This document shows positions 10,603-56,891 of a stretch of DNA of 64,000 bases, in pieces; the stretch's first letter is position 1; each line of letters starts with the position of its first letter. The stretch lies in sequence record PQ821640; one strand, given 5' to 3'. The notes below the pieces were generated by a model. It saw nothing but the letters and a program-made list of their open reading frames with translations. It was not told where the DNA came from and made no database searches. The DNA is from Escherichia phage SD2. A program made the position numbers and the translations under genes.

Positions 10603-11319
10603 TTATTTCAGTTTGTAAACAATTACATTTAAACCTTTGTTTACTAGAGTTTCTTCGATCATAAGTTTTACAATATTCCAAGAACCTCCAGCCAAACCAC
10701 AACCAAGCATTGGTAAACCTACAATTTTACCGCCTGAAGATACAACATCGTCTCCCATACTATCTAACGCATTGTAGATAGCTTCATAATTCAGGTCACG
10801 CTTACCTTCCTCACGACGACTATAACCATATTGTCCATATAAATTATAAATTGTCAAATTGTTTTCTGTATACTTAGTAAACGTACCTAATTTTTTATAA
10901 TCACCACGCTTAGTGGCACAGTCTGCTTTAAACGCACCAGGCCACTTGCTTTTAATTTTTGGTGCAATACCACTACCCATAGTGCAAAAACAGTTACAGC
11001 AGTGTGCTATAGCGTCTATATCGCCTCTCTCTGCTGCTGCTAAAAGATCACCGTATACCTCAATGATACCTGCTGGATAACTTGTTACAATTTCATCTTC
11101 CCAGTACATTTTCTCTACACCACCGATCAGTGCAAAGTTTTGTGTGATGCGATCATCAATATAATTAAGACCTGAAACATACACAGCATATTCATCCTGT
11201 GCTGTAATGCCTTGTACACGAATTCTTAAGACACCATCTTTATCTGTTGCTACACGCCCAAAATCTTTTTCTGTAATATTGGTGATAGGATCTCCGAAAG
11301 TCGTCACTTTATTAGACAT
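10603..11319 (-). CDS. Macro-domain-like protein (putative ADP-ribose binding/processing)
   Basis: Start at internal Met with RBS AAAGGGG; DAIAHCCN...MGSGIA resembles macro-domain DAIVNAAN...GGGVA signature. Confidence 0.45.
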   Translation of the reverse strand: MSNKVTTFGDPITNITEKDFGRVATDKDGVLRIRVQGITAQDEYAVYVSGLNYIDDRITQNFALIGGVEKMYWEDEIVTSYPAGIIEVYGDLLAAAERGDIDAIAHCCNCFCTMGSGIAPKIKSKWPGAFKADCATKRGDYKKLGTFTKYTENNLTIYNLYGQYGYSRREEGKRDLNYEAIYNALDSMGDDVVSSGGKIVGLPMLGCGLAGGSWNIVKLMIEETLVNKGLNVIVYKLK

Positions 11320-12169
11320 AATAATCCCCTTTAACATTAGATTTGTTGATAATGTTGCTTTCAAAAAATTGATGCAGGAAATCAAAGTTCTTTTTGTATT
11401 TTTCAATATTATTGTAACCTTCTGCAAGGCAACCAAAGAACAGTTGTTCTACATAATACAAAGGAAGTTGTGAAAGTGCAATTTTAAAATCAACTTCGCT
11501 TTGACTCATTAGATACTTAATAGGACGAACCAAACATTTAGCATCAGTTTCTTGCTTAATCATTTTAATAAAAGCTGCCAGGTTATTGATATAGTTGAAG
11601 TTAAGTGCAGCTTCGGTGTTGGCTTCTGTACCTTCATACTTTGCAAAGTACAGGAAAAACGTATCGTTTTCAACACCTTCTTTGTCTAAAATTTCAATAA
11701 GTTTTTCTTCGTGTGTTCCTGTAATATTAACATCATCAATGAAAATCAGAGTTTTATTACCCCAGAAATCACGATTGATAGAGAAAGTGTCACCATCGAT
11801 CAAAGCCTTACGATCTTCTTTGCTAAGAAATCCATAATCATTGATATAACTCACTTTACGATGAACGATATCCCACTCTACTGCTTTACCTCCTTTGATA
11901 GAGATTAGGTAGTTGAGGTGATCTACAAAATGTTCAGATAACACTGTAGCTGCATTTTTCACATAGTTATATGGAGATGGAATAACAACAAAACTTTCAT
12001 TTACTAGTCGTTCTTCATATTTAGAAAAGAAACTTTCAGCCAGAATGCGTCCCATTCTTTTTGCTGCCTGGTTACTACCAAACTTTAGTTTGGAATAATC
12101 TGCAATGTTAAATTTTGCTTCCTTCAGGTTAGTAAAAGTATTAGCAAAATGTTGAATTTGATTACGCAT
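11312..12169 (-). CDS. phosphoribosyltransferase-like protein
   Basis: 285 aa; PRPP-binding-like motif LIFIDDVNITGTH. Confidence 0.5.
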   Translation of the reverse strand: MRNQIQHFANTFTNLKEAKFNIADYSKLKFGSNQAAKRMGRILAESFFSKYEERLVNESFVVIPSPYNYVKNAATVLSEHFVDHLNYLISIKGGKAVEWDIVHRKVSYINDYGFLSKEDRKALIDGDTFSINRDFWGNKTLIFIDDVNITGTHEEKLIEILDKEGVENDTFFLYFAKYEGTEANTEAALNFNYINNLAAFIKMIKQETDAKCLVRPIKYLMSQSEVDFKIALSQLPLYYVEQLFFGCLAEGYNNIEKYKKNFDFLHQFFESNIINKSNVKGDYYV

Positions 12170-12818
12170 TAATAAGTTCCTCTTTTTTAAGTTTAGCCAA
12201 CAAGTCTTCTGGATTAATAATATGACAGAACTTCATCCCTATGTCAACAGCTTTTCCATCATAAATCAAACTATCTCCAACGTGTAAAATCTCCTCTGGT
12301 GCGAGATCAAACGTTACCATTTCATCAAAAGAGAGTTTAAAAAACCTAGGATCTGGTTTACACAAGCAAAACTCATCAGAAAAATGCATAAAGTCAAATG
12401 GTAATTTTGTTAAGCCAGAATATACAGCTAAGAAACTACCTGGTACAAAATTAGTATTGCTCTTAATACTCAAAGAATAGATTGAACTTAGCTCTTCCAA
12501 CTTCTTGCAAAGCTCAGGGTTCAATATTGGAGGATGTTTTATAAACATTGCTAAACAGTCTCTTTTTAACCCATCTACTTTATCAAGATCAATGTTCAAA
12601 CGAGTAGAAAGTGTTTCCCAAGCATTCCTAGACGTTCCACAAATGCCTTTTTCTGCTTTTAAATCCAGGAGAGTTTTTACCTCTTTATATACAGTAGCTG
12701 CTTCTGCCTCAGAACAAGAGGCATACTCGGCAATAACCTTGTTGCGTTCTTCTGCATACAAAGGATTAGCAGTAATAAGAGTATTCCATACATCAAAAGA
12801 AATATGCTTAACAGTCAT
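12162..12818 (-). CDS. HAD-superfamily hydrolase
   Basis: Start moved to Met with GGAGG RBS; motif I FDVWNTL (DxD-type), C-terminal GDS..D. Confidence 0.55.
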   Translation of the reverse strand: MTVKHISFDVWNTLITANPLYAEERNKVIAEYASCSEAEAATVYKEVKTLLDLKAEKGICGTSRNAWETLSTRLNIDLDKVDGLKRDCLAMFIKHPPILNPELCKKLEELSSIYSLSIKSNTNFVPGSFLAVYSGLTKLPFDFMHFSDEFCLCKPDPRFFKLSFDEMVTFDLAPEEILHVGDSLIYDGKAVDIGMKFCHIINPEDLLAKLKKEELINA

Positions 12819-12821
12819 TTT

Positions 12822-12976
12822 TAATCCTCCGTCCAAAAGAATATCATCTGCTTAATTTTATTGATCTCTTGATGTAGTAACTTTCCAGCATGTGATTGAT
12901 CTTTAATATTGACAGCAAGAATTTCAAGCTCCGTTAGTTTTTCTTGGATAGCTTTATATTCATCATCTGTAAGCAT
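12822..12976 (-). CDS. small hypothetical protein
   Basis: Manually found ~51 aa ORF with RBS AAAGGGGAAG; coordinates approximate. Confidence 0.3.
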
Positions 12977-12987
12977 TTTCTTCCCCT

Positions 12988-13179
12988 TTAGAATGGTAAT
13001 CTTTGTATGTCACTTATCCCCACACCCAGAAGTCTAGCAATATCCTTATCTAAAAGCAACTCTTTTTGTTCTAAAATGTTAATCAAATCTCCTAATACTT
13101 CTTTAATGTCACGATCATTTTTAGCAACGTGACCACCTGCGGTATCAACTTTATCTTTAAAAACAAAATAATGATCCAT
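12988..13179 (-). CDS. hypothetical protein
   Basis: ORF track frame; second Met preferred (GAGGG RBS). Confidence 0.4.
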   Translation of the reverse strand: MDHYFVFKDKVDTAGGHVAKNDRDIKEVLGDLINILEQKELLLDKDIARLLGVGISDIQRLPF

Positions 13180-13189
13180 AATACCCTCC

Positions 13190-13222
13190 ATATAAATAAA
13201 GGAGGCTTTCGCCTCCTTTTAT
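13190..13222 (-). terminator. rho-independent terminator after AAA ATPase gene
   Basis: GGAGGCTTTCGCCTCC hairpin with flanking T/A runs. Confidence 0.6.
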
Positions 13223-13225
13223 CAC

Positions 13226-14386
13226 TTAGTAAGAACGACCACCAAACACATACTCTGTGTAGTTTTTACGTTCTTTGTTTTTAATAACAACTTCAATGTT
13301 GTTACCTTTATCATCGGTGAACATAAAGTGATAGCCGTCACCACCCATTGTACGAATGTGTTTTTCATCATACGTTAGCAAGATACGGTCTACACCCCAG
13401 TAGTAGTCACCTTCTTCATCTTTATCTTCTACGGTAACAATCCCTTCCATTTCAGGAAGATGCTCTTCACCTAGTTTATGGTCTACAGCTACAACATAAC
13501 GATTACCGCTAAACAAACCTTGTGCTGTCATACCGTCAATATCGGTATCTGACGAAACATCTCCTGTACGATCTACACCGTTAACTTTCAGAAGTTTAAC
13601 CTCTTTTGCAGCATAGCTGTGTTCAGTAATACTGATACCCATCAATGCAAGTGCATCAGAGAATTTGTCATTAGGGTAACGGTTAAGTTCTTCTACTAAT
13701 GACTGAACAATATCAAAGTTCAAATCCACGGAGAGATTGTAAAGCGTTTCAAAATCTGGTAAGAAGGCTTTGTTCTCCAGATTTTTAGCCAGATAATCAT
13801 CCATAGTAGCTTTAGGTAGTTTCTTATAGCTAAAACTGTAGAAAATACGGCTAGGACGATTACGCAAAAATTCTGATACATAACCATCATTTTTAGTCAA
13901 TACAAACAGTTTGTCGTAGCCACCAACACCATCCAGCAGGGTAAGCAAACCATCTTGTGCATCTTTTTCAGCATACAATTTATCAAATTCATCGATCATA
14001 ATCATCACAGGTTGTGTGATTTTAGACATAAAATTGATAAAGCCTTCACCATTAAAAGCACTACCGATAGAAATAGTAGGAATACCCATTTCACGAAGAG
14101 CAGAAGACAGCATTTTAGCTTGCAAAGTTTTACCGCTACCTTTCGTACCCTCAAGGAGAACACCTGTGTTTTTACCTTTACGGCTAAGGAACGTCTTGAT
14201 AATACGTTCTGATTTATCATCAGTATCACCGTATGTTACTGAAGGGACTTCCATATCGTTTTTAGGATACAAGAAGAACTCGCCACTTTGAGTAACACCT
14301 ACACCAAAAGTTCCTGCTGGAATTTCTTCAATATCTGTACCAGATTTCTGACGCAGGAAGATTTGATTGCCGAATACTGTAAACAT
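13226..14386 (-). CDS. AAA-type ATPase (paralog A)
   Basis: 386 aa; Walker A GTKGSGKT, Walker B IMIDEFDK; paralog of 30172-31299 product. Confidence 0.7.
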   Translation of the reverse strand: MFTVFGNQIFLRQKSGTDIEEIPAGTFGVGVTQSGEFFLYPKNDMEVPSVTYGDTDDKSERIIKTFLSRKGKNTGVLLEGTKGSGKTLQAKMLSSALREMGIPTISIGSAFNGEGFINFMSKITQPVMIMIDEFDKLYAEKDAQDGLLTLLDGVGGYDKLFVLTKNDGYVSEFLRNRPSRIFYSFSYKKLPKATMDDYLAKNLENKAFLPDFETLYNLSVDLNFDIVQSLVEELNRYPNDKFSDALALMGISITEHSYAAKEVKLLKVNGVDRTGDVSSDTDIDGMTAQGLFSGNRYVVAVDHKLGEEHLPEMEGIVTVEDKDEEGDYYWGVDRILLTYDEKHIRTMGGDGYHFMFTDDKGNNIEVVIKNKERKNYTEYVFGGRSY

Positions 14387-14406
14387 AGTTTTCTCCTCTA
14401 TTTAAT

Positions 14407-14877
14407 TTAGTCAGATTCCCAAATGTTGTCTTTCTTAACCCACATTCGTTGATTATCTGAACCTCTATAACGTTTCGTTGTTGGTTGATTCATATCATAC
14501 TTACCATCTATCACTATGTCAACCAGTTTTTTAATTTTCTCTGGAATTTCTTCAAAAAGATATCCTGTATATAAGACAATATCTTTTTTGTTTCCAAAAC
14601 AATCTCTTACCTTCTCAAGAACATACTCTACAGTGTCAATGTTCTCTTTGTCAAGAGGTTCACCACCTAAAACTGTTAATCCTTTAATGAAAGGTCGAGA
14701 TAAATCTTCCAAGATAAGATCTAATGTTTCAGTAGTGAACTCTTGTCCGTAGTTATACGACCAGGCTTTCTGGTTAAAGCAGCCACGGCAACCGTGGCTA
14801 CAACCGCTCACCCACAAAGAGCATCTTACACCGTCACCGTTGAGCATGTCAACAGGTTCATATCCGGCGTAATTCAA
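14407..14877 (-). CDS. nrdG: anaerobic ribonucleotide reductase activating protein (radical SAM)
   Basis: 156 aa; CSHGCRGC radical-SAM cluster motif; 4-nt overlap with nrdD. Confidence 0.85.
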   Translation of the reverse strand: MNYAGYEPVDMLNGDGVRCSLWVSGCSHGCRGCFNQKAWSYNYGQEFTTETLDLILEDLSRPFIKGLTVLGGEPLDKENIDTVEYVLEKVRDCFGNKKDIVLYTGYLFEEIPEKIKKLVDIVIDGKYDMNQPTTKRYRGSDNQRMWVKKDNIWESD

Positions 14878-15845
14878 AAATGTTTCTCCCTTTCTAGTAC
14901 CTCTTGCATTTTACCTTTATTATAAGGGCGAGAGTTAGGGGCAGAAAGGTATCCTGACACTCTTCTGATCACAGATATGGATTCTTCTTCATGATTACCG
15001 CAACTTGGACACTCGAAGCCTTTAGCCGTTGCTTTAAATTCACCATGAAAACCACATTTGAAACACTGATCTACAGGTTGGTTCACGCCAAAATAAGGAA
15101 TTTTATTGTAGGCATAATCTACAAGAGTTTCCAGTGCTTGCAAGTTATTTTTAAGGTTTGGTGTTTCTACATAACCTATGTTCCCACCATTACTAATTTG
15201 TGCAAAACCTTCCTCATAATCCCACTTTTGGAACGGGGTAGTGTGCATCCATACAGGTTGATGGAAAGAGTTTGTCAAGTAGTCACGATCAATAGAGCCA
15301 GGATAGCGATCATTTAACGCTTTGGCAAATTTATAGCACAAGGATTCTGCTGGTGTTCCATACAAACTAAAAGCTAAACCAGAACGTTCTTTAAATGTGC
15401 AACAGATATCCTTCATATATTGAAGGATGTTTTTACCCATTGCTTTTGGATTGGTGTTGTTTGGGTATAAAATCTCCATAGCTTCTGCTAAACCTACATA
15501 ACCGATACTAATAGAGGCATAACCACCTTCAAATAGTTTACCAATCTCTTCATTAGCTTCTAGTCGAGCTAAAGCCCCTTCCATAAACAATGTAGGGTTT
15601 TGAGATGCTTTGGTATGTCTAATACGGTTAACACGTAGCATATGTGCCTTATACGCCATCTCCATATGTTGTTCCAACAGTTCAGTAAATAAGATGCCCT
15701 TTTCACGGGACTCTGCTGCAATGATAGGTAAGTTTAAAGAAACTACGCCTAAGTTGAAACGACCATCATATTTTTCACCTTGCTCTGTTGCATAGTATGA
15801 CAAGAAACTTCTACACATTATGTTCAAAGTGGCTCGCAAGGCCAC
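14874..15845 (-). CDS. nrdD: anaerobic ribonucleoside-triphosphate reductase, 3' exon (C-terminal half)
   Basis: C-terminal glycyl-radical-like IRRVSGYL, zinc ribbon CFKCGF...CPSCGN; 5' limit is a splice junction not resolved here (track start is GTG). Confidence 0.8.
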   Translation of the reverse strand: MALRATLNIMCRSFLSYYATEQGEKYDGRFNLGVVSLNLPIIAAESREKGILFTELLEQHMEMAYKAHMLRVNRIRHTKASQNPTLFMEGALARLEANEEIGKLFEGGYASISIGYVGLAEAMEILYPNNTNPKAMGKNILQYMKDICCTFKERSGLAFSLYGTPAESLCYKFAKALNDRYPGSIDRDYLTNSFHQPVWMHTTPFQKWDYEEGFAQISNGGNIGYVETPNLKNNLQALETLVDYAYNKIPYFGVNQPVDQCFKCGFHGEFKATAKGFECPSCGNHEEESISVIRRVSGYLSAPNSRPYNKGKMQEVLEREKHF

Positions 15846-16575
15846 TCCCGCACCATTACGTGCTGCTGCATGTCACCATGCAGATCAGACTATATCTTCA
15901 TGCTTAAAGCATGTCTACCATTTGGGGTGTCATAGGCTTACACCCTACGCTGCTACATTCATCACAGCTAGTCGTTAGGCATTTCGTAACAGAACTCATA
16001 ATCATAATTATTTGGTGCTCCGCGCTTTAAGATTGCAGATATTCTTTTTCTGTCCAACCCTAAAGCGTCAGCACAACATCTCAGACTTTTAAAGTAAAAA
16101 ACTTCACCAGTAGCCTTATGAGTAGCTTTTACACTGTGACACCTTGTGTAGAAAGCATAACAGTTATTATCGTAACCCTCTTGCGTGTTGTCTGGACAAG
16201 ATCCCCACTCAAGATTGTATACACTGTTGTCTTTCCTATTGTCACCTTTATGCTTCACATAAGATAAATTGTCTGGATTGGGTAAAAACGCTTCAGCTAC
16301 AAGTCTGTGCACCCGAAAGCAAACAGTTTTCTTGTTTTTACGTATTCTGACAAGTTGGTATCCTGTGTTTATTTCTTCCCACAAGCGAAGGATTCTTTCA
16401 TCCTTATACCTAGTACAATAAACATTTCCAAGCTCGTCAATTTCATACCCTTCAAAATCACGAATTTGTTTTCTCATATCAGTACCCCCTTCTTCTGTGT
16501 TGGGAGTTCTGTTACGTTTAGCACGGGATTGTCTCGTTGAGAGTTCCCCCGTTTAGGCAGATTTTACATGAGCAG
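15846..16575 (-). mobile_element. putative group I intron interrupting nrdD, carrying HNH homing endonuclease ORF
   Basis: nrdD reading frame broken between 16576 and 15845; intervening ~730 nt contains a free-standing HNH ORF and GC-rich structured flanks; boundaries approximate. Confidence 0.6.
15968..16477 (-). CDS. HNH-family homing endonuclease (intron-encoded)
   Basis: 169 aa; YEIDELGNVY, VHRLVAEAF, DNSVYNLEW motifs; RBS AAGGGGG. Confidence 0.75.
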   Translation of the reverse strand: MRKQIRDFEGYEIDELGNVYCTRYKDERILRLWEEINTGYQLVRIRKNKKTVCFRVHRLVAEAFLPNPDNLSYVKHKGDNRKDNSVYNLEWGSCPDNTQEGYDNNCYAFYTRCHSVKATHKATGEVFYFKSLRCCADALGLDRKRISAILKRGAPNNYDYEFCYEMPND

Positions 16576-17442
16576 TTATAGTTTACCCATGCTTGTGACG
16601 CGACCATCTGAAGATCCTGTAACTTCTTTGTTTAAAGGTACAGAGATAAAATCAGGATAAATGCGTTCAGCACAACACTCCATTGCCAGTTGCTTCAAAT
16701 CATAGTTTGGATCACCAGCTTTCATGTTAACACCATCTTCCAAGAAGAAGATAACTTTAGGAAACACAGGAGTTACCCTATCTTTTCCTAATCCTTGTTT
16801 GTGCACCATTAGGTAGTTTTTAGTGATCATTCTACCAAAAGCAGAGGTATCCAAACCTAAACTAATTGTTATAAAAGGTGACTGACCATTTACACTCATT
16901 AGGGTGTTCACCTGGTAGATTAAAGTTTGCATTGCATCATAGACCTGTTTATCTACCATACGCATAGCAATATCATAATCACCAACGTCAGCATAGATTT
17001 TATTAAAACTTGCTTTAACGTATTGACTAAGCCCAGTATCAATATGTGCACAAGTTTGTCCACCATATTGGCTAGAAGCTACTGCTTGAATAATTTGAGT
17101 TAGGACAGTAGTTGCTACACCGATAGATTTTGGTTTTTCAATATGTGCATTACCAATACGGAAACCGTTCTCAAGCATATCTTGGTAATTTACCAGGCAA
17201 CAGTTAGTTAGAGGTGAGAGTAAATAATCTAAATCGTGAATGTGACCATACCCGCTTTTATGCCATTCTGCCAGATCTTCCGGTAAAATATGGGTCATTG
17301 CCATGTGCTTGCTTAGGATACCTGCTAGTAAGTCTCGGTGAGTATTAACAATCATTGCAGGTTTGTTTGCATTTTCACGAGTAAATTCTTCGGATGTTTG
17401 TTCGAGGAATCCGATTACATCCTCATATAGTTTTTGGGTCAT
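16576..17442 (-). CDS. nrdD: anaerobic ribonucleoside-triphosphate reductase, 5' exon (N-terminal half)
   Basis: Start at Met11 of track ORF with GGAGG RBS; class III RNR-like sequence; in-frame stop at 16576 lies in the presumed intron, true exon end slightly upstream. Confidence 0.7.
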   Translation of the reverse strand: MTQKLYEDVIGFLEQTSEEFTRENANKPAMIVNTHRDLLAGILSKHMAMTHILPEDLAEWHKSGYGHIHDLDYLLSPLTNCCLVNYQDMLENGFRIGNAHIEKPKSIGVATTVLTQIIQAVASSQYGGQTCAHIDTGLSQYVKASFNKIYADVGDYDIAMRMVDKQVYDAMQTLIYQVNTLMSVNGQSPFITISLGLDTSAFGRMITKNYLMVHKQGLGKDRVTPVFPKVIFFLEDGVNMKAGDPNYDLKQLAMECCAERIYPDFISVPLNKEVTGSSDGRVTSMGKL

Positions 17443-17460
17443 TAATCCTCCGTGGAAAAT

Positions 17461-17487
17461 AAAAGCCAGCATTAAGCTGGCTTTAGG
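17461..17487 (-). terminator. rho-independent terminator upstream of nrdD
   Basis: AGCCAGCATTAAGCTGGCT hairpin followed on minus strand by TTTTATTTT. Confidence 0.55.
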
Positions 17488-17531
17488 GTGGATCTTTATT
17501 TTAAATCTTTTTCGTAAGATTATCCTTGATC

Positions 17532-31373: not shown

Positions 31374-32363
31374 ATGGCAGCACCAAAATCATGGGAACAA
31401 TATAAAGAAGAGTGTATACCAATAGCAGAGAGTAAGCAAATCCAAATCTTAGGATGGACGGGACAATGGAAAGGGGTCCACACAAAACTTGATTTGTTGT
31501 GCCATTGTGGTTATAAATGGGATACTACAAGTATTAACAGTTTTAAATGTGGTAGCGGTTGTCCACAATGTAGGAGGAAGAATATAAGGAAGTCACAAAC
31601 AATGTCCGACGATCAACATATTGCAGATTTCTTTTCTACAGGGGAATTTAAGGAAGGCACTATCTTCACTAACACAGGAACACGGGGTAAAGGATGTAGG
31701 AATATTATCTGGATGGTTGAATGTCCTGTTTGCTCTCATGATGAATATGTTCAAGCAGGTGTTTGTGATGGTAAATTTTACTCTGAAGGAGATAACCTTA
31801 AACGAGGGTATATTCCGTGTCGTTGTGGGAACTATCGGTATACAGAAGACCAGATCACCTATAGGGTAAAAAAGGAAGTAGAAGGGAAAGGGTATGTCTG
31901 GGTAGATTGGATTACCAAACCCTCTTCTATAGGTAAGTTTAAATATCTTTGTCTTGTGCATGGTGAGCAGATAGGGAGTGCTAATAATTTATTAAGCCTC
32001 GGTCGAGGTTGTCCTATGTGTGCTGGTCATAGTCAGCAGCAGTTATATATTAATATTGTTAAGGATGATAATATTATAGTTGCTCTTAAGTTTGGTATAG
32101 CTAAAGATAGTGATAGGCGATTAAACATTCAAAATAGCCGTAATCTGTTTTTTATGGAACGTATTTGTTTATATGATTTTAGCACAGTGAAACAGTGTAA
32201 GGCTGCTGAAAGAGCTATAAAGAAAAAATTAAAAACTGGTATTTTAACAGCAAGAGAGTTGAAAGACGGTCATACAGAAACAGTAAGTGTTTCTGATTTG
32301 GAAAATCTTCAAAAAATTATTACACAATATGGTGGCAAGTTAGTATACAATAAGGAGGTGTAA
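31374..32363 (+). CDS. zinc-ribbon repeat protein with C-terminal T5orf172/GIY-YIG-like region
   Basis: 329 aa; several CxxC...CxxC pairs; C-terminal VALKFGIAKDSDRRL resembles T5orf172 motif. Confidence 0.5.
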   Translation: MAAPKSWEQYKEECIPIAESKQIQILGWTGQWKGVHTKLDLLCHCGYKWDTTSINSFKCGSGCPQCRRKNIRKSQTMSDDQHIADFFSTGEFKEGTIFTNTGTRGKGCRNIIWMVECPVCSHDEYVQAGVCDGKFYSEGDNLKRGYIPCRCGNYRYTEDQITYRVKKEVEGKGYVWVDWITKPSSIGKFKYLCLVHGEQIGSANNLLSLGRGCPMCAGHSQQQLYINIVKDDNIIVALKFGIAKDSDRRLNIQNSRNLFFMERICLYDFSTVKQCKAAERAIKKKLKTGILTARELKDGHTETVSVSDLENLQKIITQYGGKLVYNKEV

Positions 32364-32915
32364 ATGCGGATTACTGATAAGTATGTGTTCTTCTTTTCAG
32401 CAAAAGATGAATTTAGCAACTGGTATCTATCATCTTTTATTGAACCTTTAGCACCCAAGTATAATAATTCTATTACAAGTTCTGTTGAATTTACTTGTGT
32501 GGAACAATATATGATGTGGAGAAAAGCATGTTTGTTTTATGATTACAGTATTGCATCTTCTATTTTAACCGGAGATCTAAGATATACAGGAGAAAAAGAA
32601 CAAGCATATTATAAGCGACTAGGCAGATTAGTTAAAGATTATGATGAAGATACCTGGACTTCTTTACGGGAGAAGATTGTCAAACGTGGTTTGTATCTTA
32701 AATACACACAAAATGAAGATCTCAAAAATAAACTTATAACCTACGCAGATAAGGAGTTCGTAGAGGCAAGCCCTTATGATTCTATTTATGGTATCAAAAT
32801 GGGGATGTGGGATCGTGACGTGGAAAATAAGGACTGTTGGAAAGGACAAAATCTTTTAGGAAAATGGCATACAGACCTTGCTGTTTATCTAAAAGCACAA
32901 TCTGATATTTCCTGA
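32364..32915 (+). CDS. NADAR (YbiA-like) domain protein
   Basis: 183 aa; EFSNW, EQYMMWRKACLF, LGRLV, KFTQNEDLKNKLITY..EFVEAS..D..YGIKMG pattern of the NADAR/DUF1768 family. Confidence 0.7.
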   Translation: MRITDKYVFFFSAKDEFSNWYLSSFIEPLAPKYNNSITSSVEFTCVEQYMMWRKACLFYDYSIASSILTGDLRYTGEKEQAYYKRLGRLVKDYDEDTWTSLREKIVKRGLYLKYTQNEDLKNKLITYADKEFVEASPYDSIYGIKMGMWDRDVENKDCWKGQNLLGKWHTDLAVYLKAQSDIS

Positions 32916-49488: not shown

Positions 49489-49504
49489 AAATAAGGAGAA
49501 AACT

Positions 49505-49963: not shown

Positions 49964-49964
49964 T

Positions 49965-50936: not shown

Positions 50937-51106
50937 GTTATTATGTTGTACCTTATGCCAATAAGTGGAGAGTAAGAGAAACTTGTTTTCTATTCTCCTG
51001 GTGGGCTACATTCGGAGATGGTTGTGGAAATGATACAGGAAAGCCTGTAGAGTATGACACAAAAGAAGAATGTGAACAGTGGATAAAATTAACACAAAGA
51101 TGTTGA
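50933..51106 (+). CDS. small Cys-containing protein (~57 aa)
   Basis: Manual ORF MSYYVVPYANKW...; approximate. Confidence 0.35.
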   Translation: MSYYVVPYANKWRVRETCFLFSWWATFGDGCGNDTGKPVEYDTKEECEQWIKLTQRC

Positions 51107-51159
51107 CACGATCTTAACTTCTTGTTAGTATCAATGTGTACTAACGATAAGGAGGGTTT

Positions 51160-51384
51160 ATGAAGTCTGTAAACAAGTTGCAACAATTTTTGTTATCAAC
51201 AGCAATCTTTTTGCTTTTGTTAATTGGTATTCTGTATGGTGCATCTAACTTATACAATCTACACAACAATGTAGAACATAACATAGAGAAGTGCACCATT
51301 CTAAAACACAATAAACAAGCAGAAGATTTCTTAAAGAATAAATGTTACAACTACATTGATTATGAGGAGACAAATAATGATTAA
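51160..51384 (+). CDS. small membrane protein (paralog of 46451 product)
   Basis: ORF track 74 aa; RBS AAGGAGGG. Confidence 0.5.
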   Translation: MKSVNKLQQFLLSTAIFLLLLIGILYGASNLYNLHNNVEHNIEKCTILKHNKQAEDFLKNKCYNYIDYEETNND

Positions 51385-51619
51385 AGAATTAGGCATGCGA
51401 GTATACAGTGAGTGGACTCCAAGCAATGGCCCAGGAGTTGTTGCAGCTAAGTGTATCAATGGTCGTATTGAGTACCTGGAAGGTTATGAAGATAATGAAG
51501 AGTTAGTAGATTATGCTAAATCTTTTATTGAAGATGATACAGACTTTATTGTATTATATGATACAGGAGAGTTAGAGTATGGATATGATGGAGATGGGGA
51601 TATCTTTGAACTTCAATAA
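51377..51619 (+). CDS. hypothetical acidic protein
   Basis: Start at MIKELG after GAGGAG. Confidence 0.5.
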   Translation: MIKELGMRVYSEWTPSNGPGVVAAKCINGRIEYLEGYEDNEELVDYAKSFIEDDTDFIVLYDTGELEYGYDGDGDIFELQ

Positions 51620-51663
51620 GAGTAGTAAGTAAGATATAAAGAGTGTATAGTTAGTAACATTAC

Positions 51664-51760
51664 ATATACTCTTTCCATGTATAACATGGAATATTCTCTA
51701 CCTCGCTATCGCTCGGTATATAAGATTAGGGTAGCATGTTTTTTACGAAAAGTAAAACTG
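51664..51760 (+). repeat. conserved noncoding element, copy B
   Basis: Shares hairpin + CTCGCTATCGCTCGG + TTAGGGTAGCATGTTTTTT + GAAAAGT with 26294-26413. Confidence 0.5.
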
Positions 51761-51814
51761 TTTGTACCGATTGATAGCAGGTTTTTAATAGATTTTATCT
51801 ATGAGGAGTAGAAA

Positions 51815-52033
51815 TTGTACAAATTATATAAAGCAAAAGATAAGTTTACGGGTAATACATCTGGTTTCTATGTAACACCTCGTGGTGTTGCTGTGTTCGA
51901 TTGGATCTCTGGTACTCCAGATCGTGAAATGATCTCTCTTGTAAAACTGTCGGAACAAGAGTACACTTACGGTGACATTACAACATTCTATTCTCGTGCA
52001 GAAAATCCAAAACTGATCGCGGAGTGGGAATAA
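51815..52033 (+). CDS. hypothetical protein (TTG start)
   Basis: ORF track 72 aa; TTG start after GAGGAG. Confidence 0.45.
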   Translation: MYKLYKAKDKFTGNTSGFYVTPRGVAVFDWISGTPDREMISLVKLSEQEYTYGDITTFYSRAENPKLIAEWE

Positions 52034-52296
52034 TGGTTACACGATATGGCTTAGAGGTGTACAGCCAAGGTGCTGCTGGTCAGTGTGATATTGTACCAGA
52101 TCCAGAAGGGGATTATGTTCTTCTTGCTGATTACAATAAGCTAGAAGAAAGACTTCTGGCTGTGTATGCTAAAGAAAACAAAACAATCTGCCCTTATTGC
52201 AGTGGAATGGGTTGGGTGGTTGCAGATGTTGGACAAATGTACGAATGTGTGCCTTGTAAAACCACAGGATTTATTGAAAAGGATACTGACAAATGA
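52024..52296 (+). CDS. hypothetical protein with C-terminal CxxC...CxxC
   Basis: ORF track 90 aa. Confidence 0.5.
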   Translation: MGIMVTRYGLEVYSQGAAGQCDIVPDPEGDYVLLADYNKLEERLLAVYAKENKTICPYCSGMGWVVADVGQMYECVPCKTTGFIEKDTDK

Positions 52297-52541
52297 CTGT
52301 AGCAGATAAAATGAGAGAACTGGCAGAAAACGCAGAACTTAACAAAGCAAAGGATAGTCTACAAAATATCTACTCGTATATTGAGAGAGCAGCTAAAGAT
52401 GGAGACAGAGAAGTTGCTATATATACGCTTTATCCAACTTTTGTAAAAGTTAACTTGGATGCTGAAGGTTTTTCAACTTTTATTGATACAGAAACATCTC
52501 ATTACGACGAAAACTTTACTCGAATAGTTATTCGATGGTAA
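52293..52541 (+). CDS. hypothetical protein
   Basis: ORF track 82 aa. Confidence 0.5.
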   Translation: MTVADKMRELAENAELNKAKDSLQNIYSYIERAAKDGDREVAIYTLYPTFVKVNLDAEGFSTFIDTETSHYDENFTRIVIRW

Positions 52542-52646
52542 ATTTCTGACATTTATACGCCCTGGCTACCTGGGCGTAATAAATTCAGCTTATATTTGAT
52601 CCGCGCCTTCGGCGCTTAGGCAAAGCCACGCCACACAGGAGGGTTT

Positions 52647-53057
52647 ATGTTCAAATGGTTAAAAGGGTTTCTAACATCTTTGGCAGAACCTAAGCAAGAT
52701 GTTATTAAAAGCTCTATCACAGGAAAACCGCTTGTTATAGTCACAGGCGGCTTTGGTCATGGGTTTTCTCTTAAACAAACAGATATAGGTTTACAGGGGT
52801 GTCTGATTAGCTTTAGAATCACTCAATTAGGAGATAATAGACAAACAATCTTAGATCTTTTCAATGGGGAGTTTGATGATTATTTATCTAAGAGGGATAA
52901 AGAACGTCTGATCGAGCATATAAAACACCGCTATGAGCGTGGTGGTTACTATTTAGAGACAAAACGTAATTCACAAGGTGATCTTGACATAGTTAGCATA
53001 GCGTGGGATAATGAATTTAAAACTAAACTTGGTAAACTTCTGGAGGAGTTATGGTAA
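52647..53057 (+). CDS. hypothetical protein
   Basis: ORF track 136 aa; RBS CAGGAGGG. Confidence 0.55.
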   Translation: MFKWLKGFLTSLAEPKQDVIKSSITGKPLVIVTGGFGHGFSLKQTDIGLQGCLISFRITQLGDNRQTILDLFNGEFDDYLSKRDKERLIEHIKHRYERGGYYLETKRNSQGDLDIVSIAWDNEFKTKLGKLLEELW

Positions 53058-53233
53058 ATATTAAAACAGGTGATATTGTACGTCTTGCCAGCGAAGAAAT
53101 GTTAATGACTGTAATGGTATCTACTTACGATACTTGCGAAGTGGTGTGGTTTGATGTTAATGAGCAACTACAGAAAGCTACATTTGATAAACGTATGCTT
53201 CGTAAAGTTGAAGAAGTGAAGGAGGAAGAATAA
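53051..53233 (+). CDS. hypothetical protein
   Basis: ORF track 60 aa. Confidence 0.45.
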   Translation: MVNIKTGDIVRLASEEMLMTVMVSTYDTCEVVWFDVNEQLQKATFDKRMLRKVEEVKEEE

Positions 53234-53234
53234 T

Positions 53235-53447
53235 ATGGGAATGTTGCTTCGTGTTTTTGTGTTTCTTATGTTCTGGATTATCGTTGGTAACGGTATTGTA
53301 TTTTTGATTTTTCCTGAAGTGATGACAGGTAATGAAAATAAGGCAGTGCCTTACATTATGCTTATCGGTTACGGTATTGGTACACTTGGACTACTGTTTG
53401 CTGATTGGTTAATCAATACTTTGTTCTCTAAGTACAGGAACAACTAA
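53235..53447 (+). CDS. small membrane protein
   Basis: ORF track 70 aa, two TM segments. Confidence 0.5.
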   Translation: MGMLLRVFVFLMFWIIVGNGIVFLIFPEVMTGNENKAVPYIMLIGYGIGTLGLLFADWLINTLFSKYRNN

Positions 53448-53448
53448 T

Positions 53449-53721
53449 ATGTCGGAAAACTTACCTAATGTTTTCTTTTGTTTTGTAGATGGTGTTACAC
53501 AAGAAATTATAGTTGACGAAGAAGGTATGTTTACTTATTTTGCATCTGAAGAAGAGGCAAAACTATCAGCTATGAAATGTATAAGCCAAATGTCAGTACC
53601 TGCTGTCAACAGGTTCGGTATTGCCCAGGTGTATAAAACAGTAACAGAGTTTACACCAGATCGAAAACTAACTTTTCTTAACGTTCACTTTGTTTGTAAG
53701 TTTAGTGAACTACGACATTAA
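53449..53721 (+). CDS. hypothetical protein
   Basis: ORF track 90 aa. Confidence 0.5.
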   Translation: MSENLPNVFFCFVDGVTQEIIVDEEGMFTYFASEEEAKLSAMKCISQMSVPAVNRFGIAQVYKTVTEFTPDRKLTFLNVHFVCKFSELRH

Positions 53722-53735
53722 AAGCAGGAGTAAAA

Positions 53736-54335
53736 ATGAAAGAATATTGGAGTGGTGAGAAGGGCTTGCTAAAGCCAGGGATGCTTTTGCGAGTAAAGAA
53801 CATGTTGATCACACAAGATTACATAATGCCTAATCCTGGAGCATTAGTAGAATTCCTTACTGCGCGAGATCAACCTGGGGTTGGTGAAATGTGGATTGTA
53901 ACGTGGATATCTCTCGATAGTAAATTGCGCGTTGCTCCTATTGACCCAAAACACTTGGAATCTCCTTACGCCAGCATTGATTCTCGGATCATAGATTTGG
54001 CTAGAGTTTATAAAGCTAGGACTGGTGTAGAATTAGATGTAGAAATTTTAAATCAATGTATTGACTTCTTACCTGAAAAAGTGCATAATGCACAACAAGA
54101 AGATAGCAGTTTAGAAGTTATTCTTCTGAATGATGGGATGTTCTCTGGTTTAGCATCTGTAGATTTTCCAATAACATTAAGATTGTTACCTGGAGAATAC
54201 GTACTGGATGAAGATACTATTGCTATATCCTCTAAAATTTTAGAACTCATTCCAGGTGCAAGGTGTGTTGGTGATACATCTTCCTTGCTGTTTACTCTGA
54301 ATGAAGAAGCCGTTATAGTTAAAAAGGAGAAGTAA
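53736..54335 (+). CDS. hypothetical protein
   Basis: ORF track 199 aa; RBS AGCAGGAG. Confidence 0.55.
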   Translation: MKEYWSGEKGLLKPGMLLRVKNMLITQDYIMPNPGALVEFLTARDQPGVGEMWIVTWISLDSKLRVAPIDPKHLESPYASIDSRIIDLARVYKARTGVELDVEILNQCIDFLPEKVHNAQQEDSSLEVILLNDGMFSGLASVDFPITLRLLPGEYVLDEDTIAISSKILELIPGARCVGDTSSLLFTLNEEAVIVKKEK

Positions 54336-54336
54336 A

Positions 54337-54441
54337 TGATGACGTTTATTGTTGGTGTTGTTGTTGGTTATTTTGGTCACAAGTATCAGGATGTTATCAT
54401 CGCTAAAGTTGACGAAGTAATCGAAAAATTTAAACACTAAT
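54337..54441 (+). CDS. tiny membrane peptide (~34 aa)
   Basis: Manual ORF MMTFIVGVVVGYFG...; approximate. Confidence 0.3.
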
Positions 54442-54491
54442 TTTCTAAAAGGCTGTACTATTGTGCAGCCTATCTTTCAAAGGAGAGTAAA

Positions 54492-54665
54492 ATGTTCAAA
54501 GATACCAATTATAAATGTGTACATTGTGGTAAATCTTTTGGTGATCACCAAGCTAAGACGTTCAATTGTCCACGAAAAGGGCGAGGTAGCTTTAAAGGTT
54601 TTAATCCATCCCACGTTTATTCTCCCAACTACGAGAAACCAGAAGAAGAAAAATTTGTAATCTGA
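54492..54665 (+). CDS. small zinc-ribbon-like protein (~57 aa)
   Basis: Manual ORF MFKDTNYKCVHCGK...CPRKG with RBS AAAGGAGAG; differs in frame from track ORF 54463-54660; approximate. Confidence 0.4.
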   Translation: MFKDTNYKCVHCGKSFGDHQAKTFNCPRKGRGSFKGFNPSHVYSPNYEKPEEEKFVI

Positions 54666-54674
54666 GGAGGCAAT

Positions 54675-54962
54675 ATGGAACTAGTACAAGAAGTTTATGA
54701 AAAACTAAAAGAAGAGAGTCTTGATTGGCCTGAACATGCTCTTATTGTCGTCAAAGATACTAATGGTGAAATAAAATTCTCAAGTGTGAGTGAAGACGAT
54801 GTTGTTTTAAGTCCTACAGGATATTATATGAGAGGTGTTACGTGTCTGTTCAACACCAAAGTGTATCCTGAAGTTAAACTTAGTTACGGTGAACCTGATC
54901 ATCCAGAAATCGTTACACGTAATGAATATGAAAATTATTATTTTGCTCGTGAAAGCAAATAA
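54675..54962 (+). CDS. hypothetical protein
   Basis: ORF track 95 aa; RBS GAGGAGG. Confidence 0.55.
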   Translation: MELVQEVYEKLKEESLDWPEHALIVVKDTNGEIKFSSVSEDDVVLSPTGYYMRGVTCLFNTKVYPEVKLSYGEPDHPEIVTRNEYENYYFARESK

Positions 54963-54970
54963 GGAAAACT

Positions 54971-55294
54971 ATGCAAAAAATAAATACTGGTTCTCGTCCT
55001 AAACAGAAGCAAACAAAAGCAAGGGTATCTTATGTTGATAACTCTTGTTATAATTTCAAAAATGTTAAAGAAGTTATCATTGATGAAAAAGAAGGTTTGA
55101 TTCACATTTCATCTGAACGTTTGAAAGGTAGTGTTACTCTTCGTGAGAATGTATCTATACCTATGAAAGTTGTGGTTACACTCTGTGTTGATAAGCCAGA
55201 TGTTGTTAACTACTATGTGTTCCGTGATAGTTGTATTTCATCACATAATAAGATTTTTAAATCTTCGCACGTTAAAACAAAACACATTGTATAA
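54971..55294 (+). CDS. hypothetical protein
   Basis: ORF track 107 aa. Confidence 0.55.
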   Translation: MQKINTGSRPKQKQTKARVSYVDNSCYNFKNVKEVIIDEKEGLIHISSERLKGSVTLRENVSIPMKVVVTLCVDKPDVVNYYVFRDSCISSHNKIFKSSHVKTKHIV

Positions 55295-55299
55295 CACAT

Positions 55300-55324
55300 A
55301 AACCCGCTTCGGCGGGTTTTCTTG
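55300..55324 (+). terminator. rho-independent terminator
   Basis: AAACCCGCTTCGGCGGGTTTTCTTG. Confidence 0.7.
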
Positions 55325-55379
55325 TATATACGCTCTTTATCTGTTATAAACACTTTTACCATAAACAATAGGAGGTATT

Positions 55380-55601
55380 ATGTCTGTAGTTGTAGAAGGT
55401 AGTATTGGTTTCTTAGTAGATAACCCTCACCCTTTCGTGGTTAAGGTTCATATTCAAGAAAAGGTAAGCAACAATACGTGGCTGTGCTTGTTAGATAGTA
55501 AGATACACTCTTATACAGAGGTTTATCTTCACACTTGGCAAATTGGTACAATAACAGCAGAGGATGAATTGATAATTGAACTATATGAACGAGATCTATA
55601 G
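55380..55601 (+). CDS. hypothetical protein
   Basis: ORF track 73 aa; RBS AGGAGG. Confidence 0.55.
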   Translation: MSVVVEGSIGFLVDNPHPFVVKVHIQEKVSNNTWLCLLDSKIHSYTEVYLHTWQIGTITAEDELIIELYERDL

Positions 55602-55668
55602 ATGACTTTATTAGAGAGTATAGTAGTGTTAATCATCTTTATCATTGTTGTCATAGGATATTTTACAG

Positions 55669-55705
55669 AAGACTAAAATAAAGCCCCTAGAATCGCTTCT
55701 AGGGG
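55669..55705 (+). terminator. rho-independent terminator at end of plus-strand block
   Basis: AAAGCCCCTAGAATCGCTTCTAGGGGCTTTTGTTTG. Confidence 0.7.
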
Positions 55706-55776
55706 CTTTTGTTTGTATTAGGTAGGGAAACGTATTACTAAAATAAAAAGTGCGTTAGAATGCGTTACAGGAGGTT

Positions 55777-56034
55777 TTAGGAATGCATAAAATCTTCTTC
55801 AGGGCAGGTTGAGAGATAAGAGATGCACGTTGGGACAACAACAACATTGTCTTTAAGGTTTTCAACCAAGCCTTTTGTAATCCCAGCCACTGCCCCGTTA
55901 ATATCTGCTTGACGGATACCAAAGCCTTGTTGTGCGGATAGATAACAAAATCCCTCACCTTTCTGTTGATTGTTATTGAAGTAATAAACGTAGTGCATCA
56001 TAAAATGGTCTTTAACGATTTGTTCTGTGGTCAT
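55777..56034 (-). CDS. hypothetical protein
   Basis: ORF track 85 aa. Confidence 0.5.
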   Translation of the reverse strand: MTTEQIVKDHFMMHYVYYFNNNQQKGEGFCYLSAQQGFGIRQADINGAVAGITKGLVENLKDNVVVVPTCISYLSTCPEEDFMHS

Positions 56035-56045
56035 AATATTCTCCT

Positions 56046-56072
56046 ATAAGAAAAGGGGCTTTCGCCCCCTTG
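56046..56072 (-). terminator. rho-independent terminator after Sir2-like gene
   Basis: GGGGGCGAAAGCCCC hairpin then TTTTCTTAT on minus strand. Confidence 0.6.
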
Positions 56073-56078
56073 GTTAAG

Positions 56079-56891
56079 TTATTTAGTCAAATGATCTTCT
56101 ATCATTTTTATGAAAGCAGGATTGCTAAAAGCATCTGCGGCCTTTTCTCGATAAACAAAGACTCCTCTATCTTCGTAAAGAAGAGTTTCTTCGTAATTAA
56201 TTCCTGGGTTAACAACAATCATTTTTGTACCCATATTAAGTGCAGGGAATAATTCCCAATTAAAATTGATAACTTGGTTTGAACATCCTACTACTACAAC
56301 CAAATCTTGCATGGTCAAAGTATCAAACAAGTGAGCCATATCTGCATACAAAGGTGCAGCCTCACCAAAAAATACAACATTAGGCTTCACCCAGTTGTAA
56401 TCATCTATGTTTATACTGTTGTAACCAATATCTACCAGTGTTTTGTAATCCCCAGGATGCATACGGTAAACTACTTCAGGAAGATATCCGTGCACGTGGA
56501 TAACAGAATCCCTGTCTACACCTGCTCGCTCTAGTAGATCATCAACGTTTGTTGTCAAGTTTACTACTTGGTTAGGATATTCCTTAAACCACTTTGCTAT
56601 TTGAATATGTGCAGCATTAGGTTGTACATCTTTAAGCTCAACACGTCTTTTGTTATAAAATTCGTGTGTTTTGGCATACAAATCCATACCGTTTTCGTCT
56701 ACACCACCAACCACTGGAAGATCTGGTGATGTTCTCACACGATAACCTGCTTGGAAAGCTCCAATATCGCAGATCTCTTCTAAATCCCATTCTTCCCATA
56801 AGGCACGACCACTATCTGTGTCTGTTCGGAATGTTCGAATCCCACTGTCTGCACTTAAACCAGCTCCACTAACAAAAATTACTCTTCGCAT
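56079..56891 (-). CDS. Sir2-family (sirtuin-like) NAD-dependent protein
   Basis: 270 aa; FVSGAGLSADSGIRTFR (GAGxS..SGIxTFR), TTNVDDLLERAG, HVHG motifs of the Sir2 fold. Confidence 0.75.
   Translation of the reverse strand: MRRVIFVSGAGLSADSGIRTFRTDTDSGRALWEEWDLEEICDIGAFQAGYRVRTSPDLPVVGGVDENGMDLYAKTHEFYNKRRVELKDVQPNAAHIQIAKWFKEYPNQVVNLTTNVDDLLERAGVDRDSVIHVHGYLPEVVYRMHPGDYKTLVDIGYNSINIDDYNWVKPNVVFFGEAAPLYADMAHLFDTLTMQDLVVVVGCSNQVINFNWELFPALNMGTKMIVVNPGINYEETLLYEDRGVFVYREKAADAFSNPAFIKMIEDHLTK

Follow-up and report, generated by a model that had tools for sequence, protein, structure and literature searches.

The question raised by this locus is whether three proteins that act on NAD or ADP-ribose, all encoded on a stretch of 64,000 nucleotides from Escherichia phage SD2 (sequence record PQ821640; the whole stretch is called the window below), form one counter-defence toolkit or are separate enzymes. 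The proteins are a macrodomain protein (Macro), a NADAR protein and a Sir2-like protein or sirtuin (Table 1). The original prediction had placed the three open reading frames (ORFs) exactly where they lie, and its family assignments are all correct: in the profile search each protein scores above the curated Pfam-A cut-off. The PHROGs assignments (phrog_335 'phosphatase', phrog_1017 and phrog_2162 'Sir2') agree. The best overall explanation is probably that these are three real and separate enzymes. In this explanation the NADAR protein is the anti-defence factor AdfN, the macrodomain is similar to the phage enzyme Adpp, the sirtuin belongs to a clade of its own in phages, and the phosphoribosyltransferase (PRTase) encoded next to Macro is part of a Ter-type module.

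The window was compared with sequenced phages by DNA searches with three of its parts. It is 98-99% identical to the phages ECGD1, phi92 and PaulScherrer (Bas60) of the BASEL collection, and the searches returned about 54 records of nearly identical sequence, all from phi92-like E. coli myoviruses. The source is a phi92-like lytic E. coli myovirus of the genus Justusliebigvirus, subfamily Stephanstirmvirinae. The genome of PaulScherrer (MZ501100) is collinear with the window over approximately 49.3-114.9 kb, and its curated labels include 'putative macrodomain protein', 'putative phosphoribosyltransferase', 'putative HAD-like superfamily protein', 'putative YbiA-like N-glycosidase' and 'sirtuin family protein'. 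The finding of the three families is correct and largely ordinary, being for the most part already contained in this curated annotation and in recent literature. Three questions about phi92-like phages are worth asking: what the substrate of the sirtuin is, which of its possible activities the macrodomain has, and what the Ter-type HAD-PRTase_3 pair produces. As tractable E. coli phages, phi92 and Bas60 would allow knockouts that address the sirtuin, the macrodomain and the Ter module.

It is convenient to begin with the NADAR protein, which is identical in 181 of 183 residues (99%) to the Bas60 protein bas60_0111 of equal length. This protein was named AdfN^Bas60 by Johannesman et al. (Nat Commun 2025, PMC11825919). 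No phage infection is needed for it to neutralize the DarT1 toxin in E. coli, and it restores the full titre of phages RB69, T5 and Bas25 on DarTG1 hosts with no effect on DarTG2 (PMC11825919). The near identity makes the window protein the orthologue of AdfN^Bas60, which is a DNA guanine-ADP-ribose glycohydrolase and orphan anti-DarT1 antitoxin. Going by the experiment on the 99%-identical protein, it would strip the ADP-ribose set by host DarT1 on guanine of the phage DNA and so permit replication in DarTG1 hosts. The two genes occupy the same position in collinear genomes of the same phage genus. The differences are small: the window protein has the substitutions T126A and A178T, both located away from the catalytic motifs, and the gene upstream is a 329-residue CapR/T5orf172 endonuclease-like ORF in the window, while in Bas60 it encodes a hypothetical protein of 467 residues. 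The counter-defence role that had been suggested for all three proteins is thus borne out for NADAR by a published anti-DarTG1 factor. This part of the finding is already in the literature and is experimentally settled for the 99%-identical protein.

The putative catalytic residues of the NADAR protein were compared with those of characterized members of the family. The protein matches PDB entry 8bau (NADAR domain-containing protein, E 7e-12) with the EQY...K and VEAS motifs aligned. The family has a catalytic Glu and a catalytic Lys, E88 and K95 in the E. coli C7 NADAR, and its last strand carries either an acidic residue or His. Residues E47 and K54 of the window protein have the same seven-residue spacing as the essential E88 and K95 (the numbering was mapped by eye). 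The Glu-type residue of the last strand, E134, is also kept within VEAS, which is aligned to YEAS of PnNADAR; its number, too, was mapped by eye. The clade occurs in 724 of the 50,697 phage records searched, mostly in Herelleviridae of Gram-positive hosts and, in addition, in phi92- and phAPEC8-like phages. In public records these proteins are named 'GTP cyclohydrolase II', 'swarming motility protein' or 'N-glycosidase', and the window protein scores 109.5 bits, above the cut-off, with the NCBIfam model TIGR02464 (riboflavin-intermediate N-glycosidase). The name 'GTP cyclohydrolase II' and the riboflavin N-glycosidase name are in conflict with the published reversal of DarT1 by the Bas60 protein.

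The second protein, Macro, consists of a macrodomain proper, which covers approximately residues 88-238, and an N-terminal extension of about 87 residues. The macrodomain was modelled by AlphaFold2 (AF2) with a predicted local distance difference test score (pLDDT) above 90. In Foldseek comparisons its template modelling scores (TM-scores), normalised to the target length, are 0.91 for TARG1, 0.81 for DarG and 0.74 for Poa1p. The nearest PDB sequence matches are SCO6735, BT1257 and TARG1 (entries including 5e3b and 2fg1), and the sequence match to Poa1p is weak (E 0.01-0.02). The macrodomain is a member of the TARG1/BT1257/SCO6735-like subfamily, and among phages it shares a clade with Adpp and the T4 protein AdfM (Tk.4). 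With tk.4 included, this clade is found in 2,972 of the 50,697 phage records, approximately 6% of sequenced phages, and two competing activities with experimental support have been described within it.

It is important to compare this domain with DarG and TARG1, with which it shares the fold and the ADP-ribose-binding glycine loops (TM 0.81-0.91). However, in the alignment to 4j5q/4j5r residues Q163 and A210 stand at the positions of TARG1 K84 and D125, and K84 is the equivalent of K80, the catalytic residue of DarG. The DarG profile matches the macrodomain with E 1e-13, but the score is 48.9 bits where the equivalog cut-off is 250, and the match is confined to positions 4-147 of a model with 338 positions. 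The C-terminal DarT-binding domain of DarG was not found in the Macro protein by this comparison with the DarG model. True membership of DarG or TARG1 is ruled out by the replacements of Lys by Gln and of Asp by Ala and by the domain architecture.

The N-terminal extension is carried only by P0121, the phi92 group, and by P0122 (53% identity). The AF2 model has a pLDDT of 32-56 over this segment, and no fold was assigned to it. It is homologous (E 1.5e-5) to the N-terminal half of a separate ORF of 184 residues, which lies between the PRTase and Macro genes in the related lineage L020 (L020:4457-5011). Because of this homology to a free-standing ORF, the 87-residue extension is taken as what is left of an upstream ORF that was once separate and became fused to Macro. 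The C-terminal half of the same L020 ORF appears, by eye only, to have MazG-like EC-AD repeats.

Which reaction the macrodomain may catalyse was considered by comparison with its characterized relatives. The first of them is Adpp. According to the preprint by Osterman et al. (bioRxiv 2026, 10.64898/2026.01.28.702374), Adpp is a macrodomain present in 15% of NARP1 operons, recognized as a macro gene located within two genes of NARP1 (Adps, Namat). It converts ADP-ribose-1''-phosphate (ADPR-1''-phosphate) to ADP-ribose (ADPR), which lets NARP1 overcome aRES, a defence by a RES-domain NAD+ phosphorylase. There the activity is shown only for the protein of Vibrio phage Gary (KNV71_gp137), and Adpp is described as homologous to yeast Poa1p (10.64898/2026.01.28.702374). 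The window macrodomain has 47% identity to a Pakpunavirus macrodomain encoded beside NARP1 and 39% to its counterpart in Vibrio phage River4, the gene orders being Adps-Namat-Macro in the Pakpunavirus and Adps-Macro-Namat in River4. The motifs NLYGQY and GLPxxGCGLAGG are common to the window macrodomain and the macrodomains of NARP1 operons. The same clade adjoins NAMPT in two large contigs, L021 and L022. A NARP1-like gene pair also exists in PaulScherrer at 143141-145839 (L007:8142-10840), outside the window. It consists of bas60_0254 and bas60_0255, labelled 'PRPP synthetase' and 'nicotinamide PRTase', which are 35% and 40% identical to the tested Adps and Namat of Bas63. Homologues of Adps and Namat were not found in the window.

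An Adpp-like activity would be the most likely one for the macrodomain because of the higher identity and the motifs shared with macrodomains of NARP1 operons, the NAMPT neighbours and the NARP1-like pair in relatives. As homology suggests, the domain, with its TARG1 fold and with Gln and Ala at the Lys and Asp sites, would hydrolyse small ADP-ribose derivatives, above all ADPR-1''-phosphate to ADPR. The ADPR so formed could feed the NARP1-like pair of the relatives, outside the window, for the rebuilding of NAD+. Adpp and the window protein thus have in common the phage macro clade, the motifs and a NARP1-like pair in the same type of genome. In contrast to Adpp, the window gene is not within two genes of NARP1. 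It also differs in the 87-residue extension, in its setting among the HAD, PRTase_3, TerC and TelA genes and in the weak match to Poa1p.

The second relative is Tk.4 of phage T4, named AdfM, the deletion of which sensitises T4 to DarTG2 (HIDEN-SEQ preprint, 10.1101/2025.11.20.689424). The authors of that preprint write that enzymatic removal by AdfM 'seems likely' (10.1101/2025.11.20.689424). In BLASTP, Tk.4 and the window macrodomain are 29-30% identical over 139 residues (E 1e-17), and Macro is the sole Tk.4 homologue in the window. The two homologues give identical sets of PDB matches, and each has Gln where TARG1 has K84. However, Tk.4 is more distant from the window protein than are the macrodomains of Adpp type, its motifs are different (NLYTQF and GAGIGKG), and it has no N-terminal extension and another genomic context. 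An additional or alternative activity of the window macrodomain may be the removal of ADP-ribose from thymine in DNA, which has been supposed for AdfM.

This raises the possibility that the macrodomain and NADAR are together a two-pronged anti-DarTG kit like AdfM and AdfN of T4, the main substrate of the macrodomain being thymine-ADP-ribosylated phage DNA (the product of DarT2) and NADAR clearing the guanine modification made by DarT1. The homology to AdfM, the effect of its deletion on sensitivity to DarTG2 and the matches to the DarG profile and the DarG structures all point in this direction, and the inactivity of AdfN^Bas60 on DarTG2 leaves a gap that a macrodomain could fill. However, the macrodomain is nearer to the NARP1-associated macrodomains (39-47% identity) than to AdfM (29%) and has the motifs of the former; it has Gln in place of the catalytic lysine of DarG, does not have the C-terminal domain and scores 49 bits against the equivalog cut-off of 250. 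In addition, for AdfM itself ADP-ribose removal only 'seems likely' in the preprint. Such a kit is conceivable, and we regard it as clearly less probable than an Adpp-like activity. The suggestion of a counter-defence role for the macrodomain is plausible in its general form, since its relatives either rescue NARP1 from aRES (Adpp) or act against DarTG2 (T4). The public-record name 'phosphatase' does not say which macrodomain activity is meant; with regard to annotation, this ambiguity stands beside the clash between the automatic names of NADAR and the Bas60 experiment.

The third protein is the sirtuin. The quoted motifs GAGLSADSGIRTFR and HVHG are present in its translation. The clade is found in 991 of the 50,697 phage records, in T5-like, rV5-like, phi92-like, Klebsiella, KVP40-like and jumbo phages; the window protein is 60% identical to the T5-like, 48% to the rV5-like and 37% to the KVP40-like orthologues. 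Across four phage groups with 42-60% identity, the motifs GAGLS, FR, (T/A)NV(D/S)DL, HxHG and KPxVVFF are invariant, and the window protein has the variants TTNVDDL and HVHG. Among solved structures the best match is E. coli CobB (1s5p, E 6e-18), and other canonical sirtuins come next. The FGE loop, GAGxS, FR, NxD and the catalytic His are all retained. The segment that aligns with the zinc module of CobB contains no Cys, and no zinc-ribbon cysteine is conserved in the phage alignment. These features suggest a catalytically competent, NAD+-consuming enzyme with a remodelled small domain.

A conventional function would be that of a protein lysine deacylase like the host CobB, or of a protein ADP-ribosyltransferase, which reprogrammes host or phage proteins. 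The best PDB and NCBIfam matches are to deacylases of CobB type, and the NAD-binding motifs and catalytic His listed above are those of canonical sirtuins. However, the best NCBIfam score of CobB type is 104.8 bits against a cut-off of 243, and the CobB equivalog model gives 84.5 against 320, so that the protein is far under every CobB cut-off. The four zinc-binding cysteines of canonical sirtuins are missing, there is an insertion of 25 residues, and the clade is specific to phages and has insertions of its own. Canonical sirtuins contain the motif TQN(I/V)D with Gln. In the phage clade this Gln is Thr or Ala. A conventional deacylase or ADP-ribosyltransferase is consequently rather unlikely, and the assignment to a phage-specific sirtuin clade is preferred.

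Most viral sirtuins have been placed in this clade, and a KptA/Tpt1-like role in RNA repair has been predicted for it from gene neighbourhoods (Iyer, Burroughs, Anantharaman, Aravind, Viruses 2022, PMC9503650). According to that prediction the sirtuin would remove 2'-phosphates from RNA in tRNA repair. The neighbourhood was confirmed in the rV5-like phage RudolfGeigy, where an RNA ligase, a small ORF and the sirtuin are found with a polynucleotide kinase (PNK) and a phosphoesterase alongside; the window protein resembles this clade in being 48% identical to the rV5-like member. In genomes of phi92 type, however, the RNA ligase/PNK/phosphoesterase module is located at PaulScherrer 138358-140248, approximately 32 kb from Sir2 and outside the window. 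In the predicted system the sirtuin gene borders genes of RNA ligase, cREC, kinase, MazG or phosphoesterase. Of these, the window has near Sir2 only a calcineurin-like phosphoesterase, at a distance of 4.5 kb. Phage sirtuins are occasionally accompanied by a gene of this family (PMC9503650). Eleven neighbours of Sir2 were tested, and none of them lies beside Sir2 in T5-like, rV5-like or KVP40-like phages.

The proposal that the sirtuin is a counter-defence gene fared less well than the corresponding proposal for NADAR: no defence-type SIR2 is matched, the CobB relationship is below threshold, and the sole published idea is the predicted RNA repair. The PADLOC effector models gave no match to a defence-type SIR2 NADase such as ThsA, DSR or SIR2-HerA and only a 13.8-bit match to an unrelated candidate model; on this ground a hijacked defence NADase is ruled out. 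A two-gene module of Sir2 with the overlapping ORF of 189 residues was also considered and dropped, since this ORF is not beside Sir2 in other phage groups. Two ORFs of the minus strand in this region, 56879-57448 and 62457-63029, are labelled 'putative aminoacyl-tRNA synthetase' in BASEL annotation and have no significant match in Pfam or NCBIfam. The former, which overlaps the start of Sir2 by 13 nucleotides, gave only a 14.7-bit match to PhetRS_B1.

Table 1. Positions of the three enzymes and of neighbouring features in the window (Escherichia phage SD2, PQ821640).
Feature	Positions	Strand	Length (aa)	Evidence and remarks
TelA-family protein	6187..7290	-		PF05816, 118 bits; far end of Ter-like block
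TerC-family integral membrane protein	9069..10046	-		PF03741, 133 bits; downstream of macro gene
Macro protein	10603-11319	-	238	PF01661, 31.3 bits vs cut-off 22, residues 106-217
Macrodomain proper, residues ~88-238	10603..11058	-		PF01661, AF2, Foldseek
N-terminal extension of Macro	11059..11319	-	~87	Lineage-specific
PRTase_3 (ComF-like phosphoribosyltransferase)	11312..12169	-		PF15610, 143.7 bits vs cut-off 28.7
HAD-family phosphatase	12162..12836	-		PF00702; NCBIfam HAD-IA and nucleotidase-like matches below cut-off
AAA-type ATPase	13226-14386	-	386	PF00004, 29.5 bits; between nrdG and HAD-PRTase-Macro block
CapR/T5orf172-type homing-endonuclease-like gene	31374..32363	+	329	PF21817, PF10544; phrog_681 'endonuclease'
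NADAR protein	32364..32915	+	183	PF08719, 124.6 bits vs cut-off 35.1
Phage-clade sirtuin	56079-56891	-	270	PF02146, 80 bits vs cut-off 24
SLOG/DprA-like Rossmannoid protein	60468..61046	-	192	AF2 and Foldseek
Calcineurin-like metallophosphoesterase	61377..62123	-		PF00149, 53.8 bits; 4.5 kb from Sir2

The gene adjacent to Macro encodes a PRTase, which had been suggested to feed a step of nucleotide salvage. The context does not bear this out: the PRTase is always paired with a HAD protein, is usually found among Ter genes, and has no macrodomain beside it in four divergent contexts. As many as 306 homologues of PRTase_3 were found, and PF15610 is present in 120 of the 120 that were listed. The HAD gene, for which the ATG start annotated in relatives gives a protein of 218 residues, adjoins PRTase_3 in every context examined, including L003, L011, L013, L015 and L020. 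The macrodomain is absent from the four divergent HAD-PRTase_3 contexts (L011, L013, L014 and L015), two of which carry TerC with TerD, vWA-TerF or TelA, TelA being found in L013. The association of the pair with TerC and TelA genes of Ter type is also seen in L013, L015 and L020. On this context (the HAD pairing, the Ter genes and the four cases without a macrodomain) the PRTase was rejected as an NAD or nucleotide salvage enzyme.

In the model of the Ter system, the PRTase and the HAD protein make a nucleoside-like compound, and phage versions have been described (PMC7824862). The same paper proposes that phages use their Ter systems to compete with other phages that superinfect the cell (PMC7824862). 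The conserved context suggests that PRTase_3 and its HAD partner act as the nucleoside-like-metabolite module of a phage-borne Ter system with TerC and TelA. The window block resembles the PRTase/HAD module of Anantharaman, Iyer and Aravind (2012), as cited in PMC7824862, in that PRTase_3 adjoins HAD, TerC and TelA, and the same HAD-PRTase_3 pairing occurs with TerD and vWA-TerF in other large phage contigs. However, ten neighbours tested in the window gave no Pfam match to TerD, TerB or TerF, of which divergent versions are possible, and a macrodomain is inserted in the block. The presence of the macrodomain in the block is specific to this phage subfamily. The order AAA-HAD-PRTase-Macro-TerC-TelA is syntenic in Phapecoctavirus ukendt (L003) and in L020, in which Macro is 49% and 66% identical to the window protein, respectively. 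The AAA-type ATPase, which is kept in the same position with 74% identity in L020, may be part of the Ter-like block.

This arrangement raises another possibility, namely that the macrodomain is a working part of the Ter-like module and binds or processes the phosphoribosyl or nucleoside-like product of PRTase_3 and HAD. This product would act alongside TerC and TelA, perhaps to exclude superinfecting phages or to protect the membrane. At both junctions between the HAD, PRTase and Macro genes there is an overlap of 8 nucleotides, and the block is syntenic in three lineages whose macrodomains are only 49-66% identical. Furthermore, the ORF that lies between the PRTase and Macro genes in L020 has been fused to the macrodomain in the phi92-like phage, and a phage Ter role in competition with superinfecting phages has been proposed (PMC7824862). 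Against this, the four distant contexts have the HAD-PRTase_3 pair without a macrodomain, two of them with TerC, TerD, TerF or TelA, and outside the phage subfamily the same macro clade is found with NAMPT or NARP1 genes or alone. Small overlaps and tight packing are usual in phage genomes. A working role of the macrodomain in the Ter module is thus unlikely, and an Adpp-like enzyme is preferred.

The question of one toolkit or separate genes can now be considered. Distances of 21 kb and 23 kb separate the Macro, NADAR and Sir2 genes, which belong to different gene blocks and are not all on the same strand. The three families differ in their phage distribution and do not have shared neighbours, which argues against a toolkit inherited as one unit. 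Since the phyletic distributions differ and the transcription units are separate, the three genes are taken to have been acquired and inherited separately and not to constitute a co-inherited system. If the three clades were distributed independently, approximately 0.8 records among the 50,697 would be expected to carry all of them, while at least 54 phi92-like records do so. No statistical claim on co-occurrence is made, because the records that carry all three belong to one to three related lineages of large myoviruses; the count is therefore not evidence of linkage.

Several observations weigh against the reading of three separate enzymes with an Adpp-like macrodomain. In the coordinates of Bas60 approximately 83 kb separate the macro gene (60 kb) from the NARP1-like pair (143-146 kb). 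The NARP1 label of bas60_0254/0255 itself depends on the identities of 35-40% and on the published statement that the operon is present in four BASEL phages. Activities of Adpp and AdfM type appear not to be separable by homology, as the invariant Gln is present in both relatives and the DarG profile is matched too. The macro gene is retained in the HAD-PRTase-TerC-TelA block across three lineages and may work with this block. A literature search found no experimental work on this phage sirtuin clade. With regard to the separateness of the genes, 10 kb of the contig L021 hold Nudix, NAMPT, two macrodomains, HAD_SAK_2 and SIR2, and in one Pakpunavirus the genes of RNA ligase, Adps, Namat, Macro and SLOG are clustered. 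Since physical clusters of these families exist in some phages of other kinds, a functional link of Macro, NADAR and Sir2 via ADP-ribose metabolites is possible.

The most elaborate form of such a link would be one closed NAD+ cycle for RNA repair, in which Sir2, acting like Tpt1/KptA on 2'-phosphate ends, produces ADP-ribose 1'',2''-cyclic phosphate, a phosphoesterase converts this to ADPR-1''-phosphate, the macrodomain acts like Poa1p to give ADPR, and the NARP1-like pair restores NAD+. A KptA-like role is predicted for the sirtuin clade (PMC9503650), the rV5-like orthologue is embedded in a module of RNA ligase, PNK and phosphoesterase, and one member of the macro clade, a homologue of Poa1p, is a proven ADPR-1''-phosphate phosphatase. 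In addition, a genome of phi92 type holds RNA ligase, PNK, phosphoesterase and the NARP1-like pair, and L021 clusters NAMPT, macrodomains and SIR2. This cycle is nevertheless very unlikely, as its parts are spread over tens of kilobases in this genome, the neighbours of Sir2 are not conserved across phage groups, the action of sirtuins on RNA 2'-phosphates is a prediction, and repair by PNK and ligase of T4 type is not known to create 2'-phosphates. Equally improbable is either of two looser arrangements: an NAD+-neutral circuit, in which NAD+ is spent by the sirtuin on damaged RNA or on some other target, the phosphorylated ADP-ribose left over is converted to ADPR by the macrodomain, and the NARP1-like pair rebuilds NAD+; or a macrodomain that acts on a phosphoribosyl metabolite of the Ter module. 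The explanation by three separate enzymes is retained.

A further protein of the window, encoded by the ORF at 60468-61046, has no sequence match in Pfam or in the PDB. The AF2 model has a pLDDT of 96, and its top Foldseek matches are all members of the SLOG superfamily (DprA, LOG, YpsA, ShosA and the SLOG domain of ThsA), with TM-scores of about 0.5. PF02481 was found in five relatives of this protein. It is 42% identical to the product of a Pakpunavirus gene located two ORFs downstream of the NARP1-AP macrodomain. As modelled, this putative SLOG protein is a fourth family of the NAD/ADP-ribose network in the window, which the original prediction had overlooked.

The CapR/T5orf172-type gene stops immediately before the start codon of NADAR. 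In several records of relatives the region of this ORF is matched in two pieces, which suggests that the slot next to the anti-defence gene is a variable site occupied by mobile endonucleases. This gene is context only and stands outside the function of NADAR.

Among the relatives of the window, the records MG065639, MG065645, MG065656 and MG065689 are labelled 'Campylobacter phage' with the host Campylobacter jejuni, yet they are 98% identical to E. coli phi92-like phages over the regions searched. These host labels look doubtful.

The nrdD gene, coding for class III ribonucleotide reductase (14877-17472, minus strand), is split by an insertion of about 770 bp at 15816-16584, which is missing from PaulScherrer. 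The two exon parts are 100% identical to residues 297-609 and 1-296 of the Bas60 NrdD. Rfam gave no match in the window at its gathering thresholds; below them, a group I intron is matched at 15866-15973 within the insertion with 39.3 bits (gathering threshold 50, E 2.6e-8). An HNH/NUMOD ORF is located at 15968-16477 inside the insertion. As in nrdD of T4, the insertion is apparently a mobile group I intron that carries a homing endonuclease.

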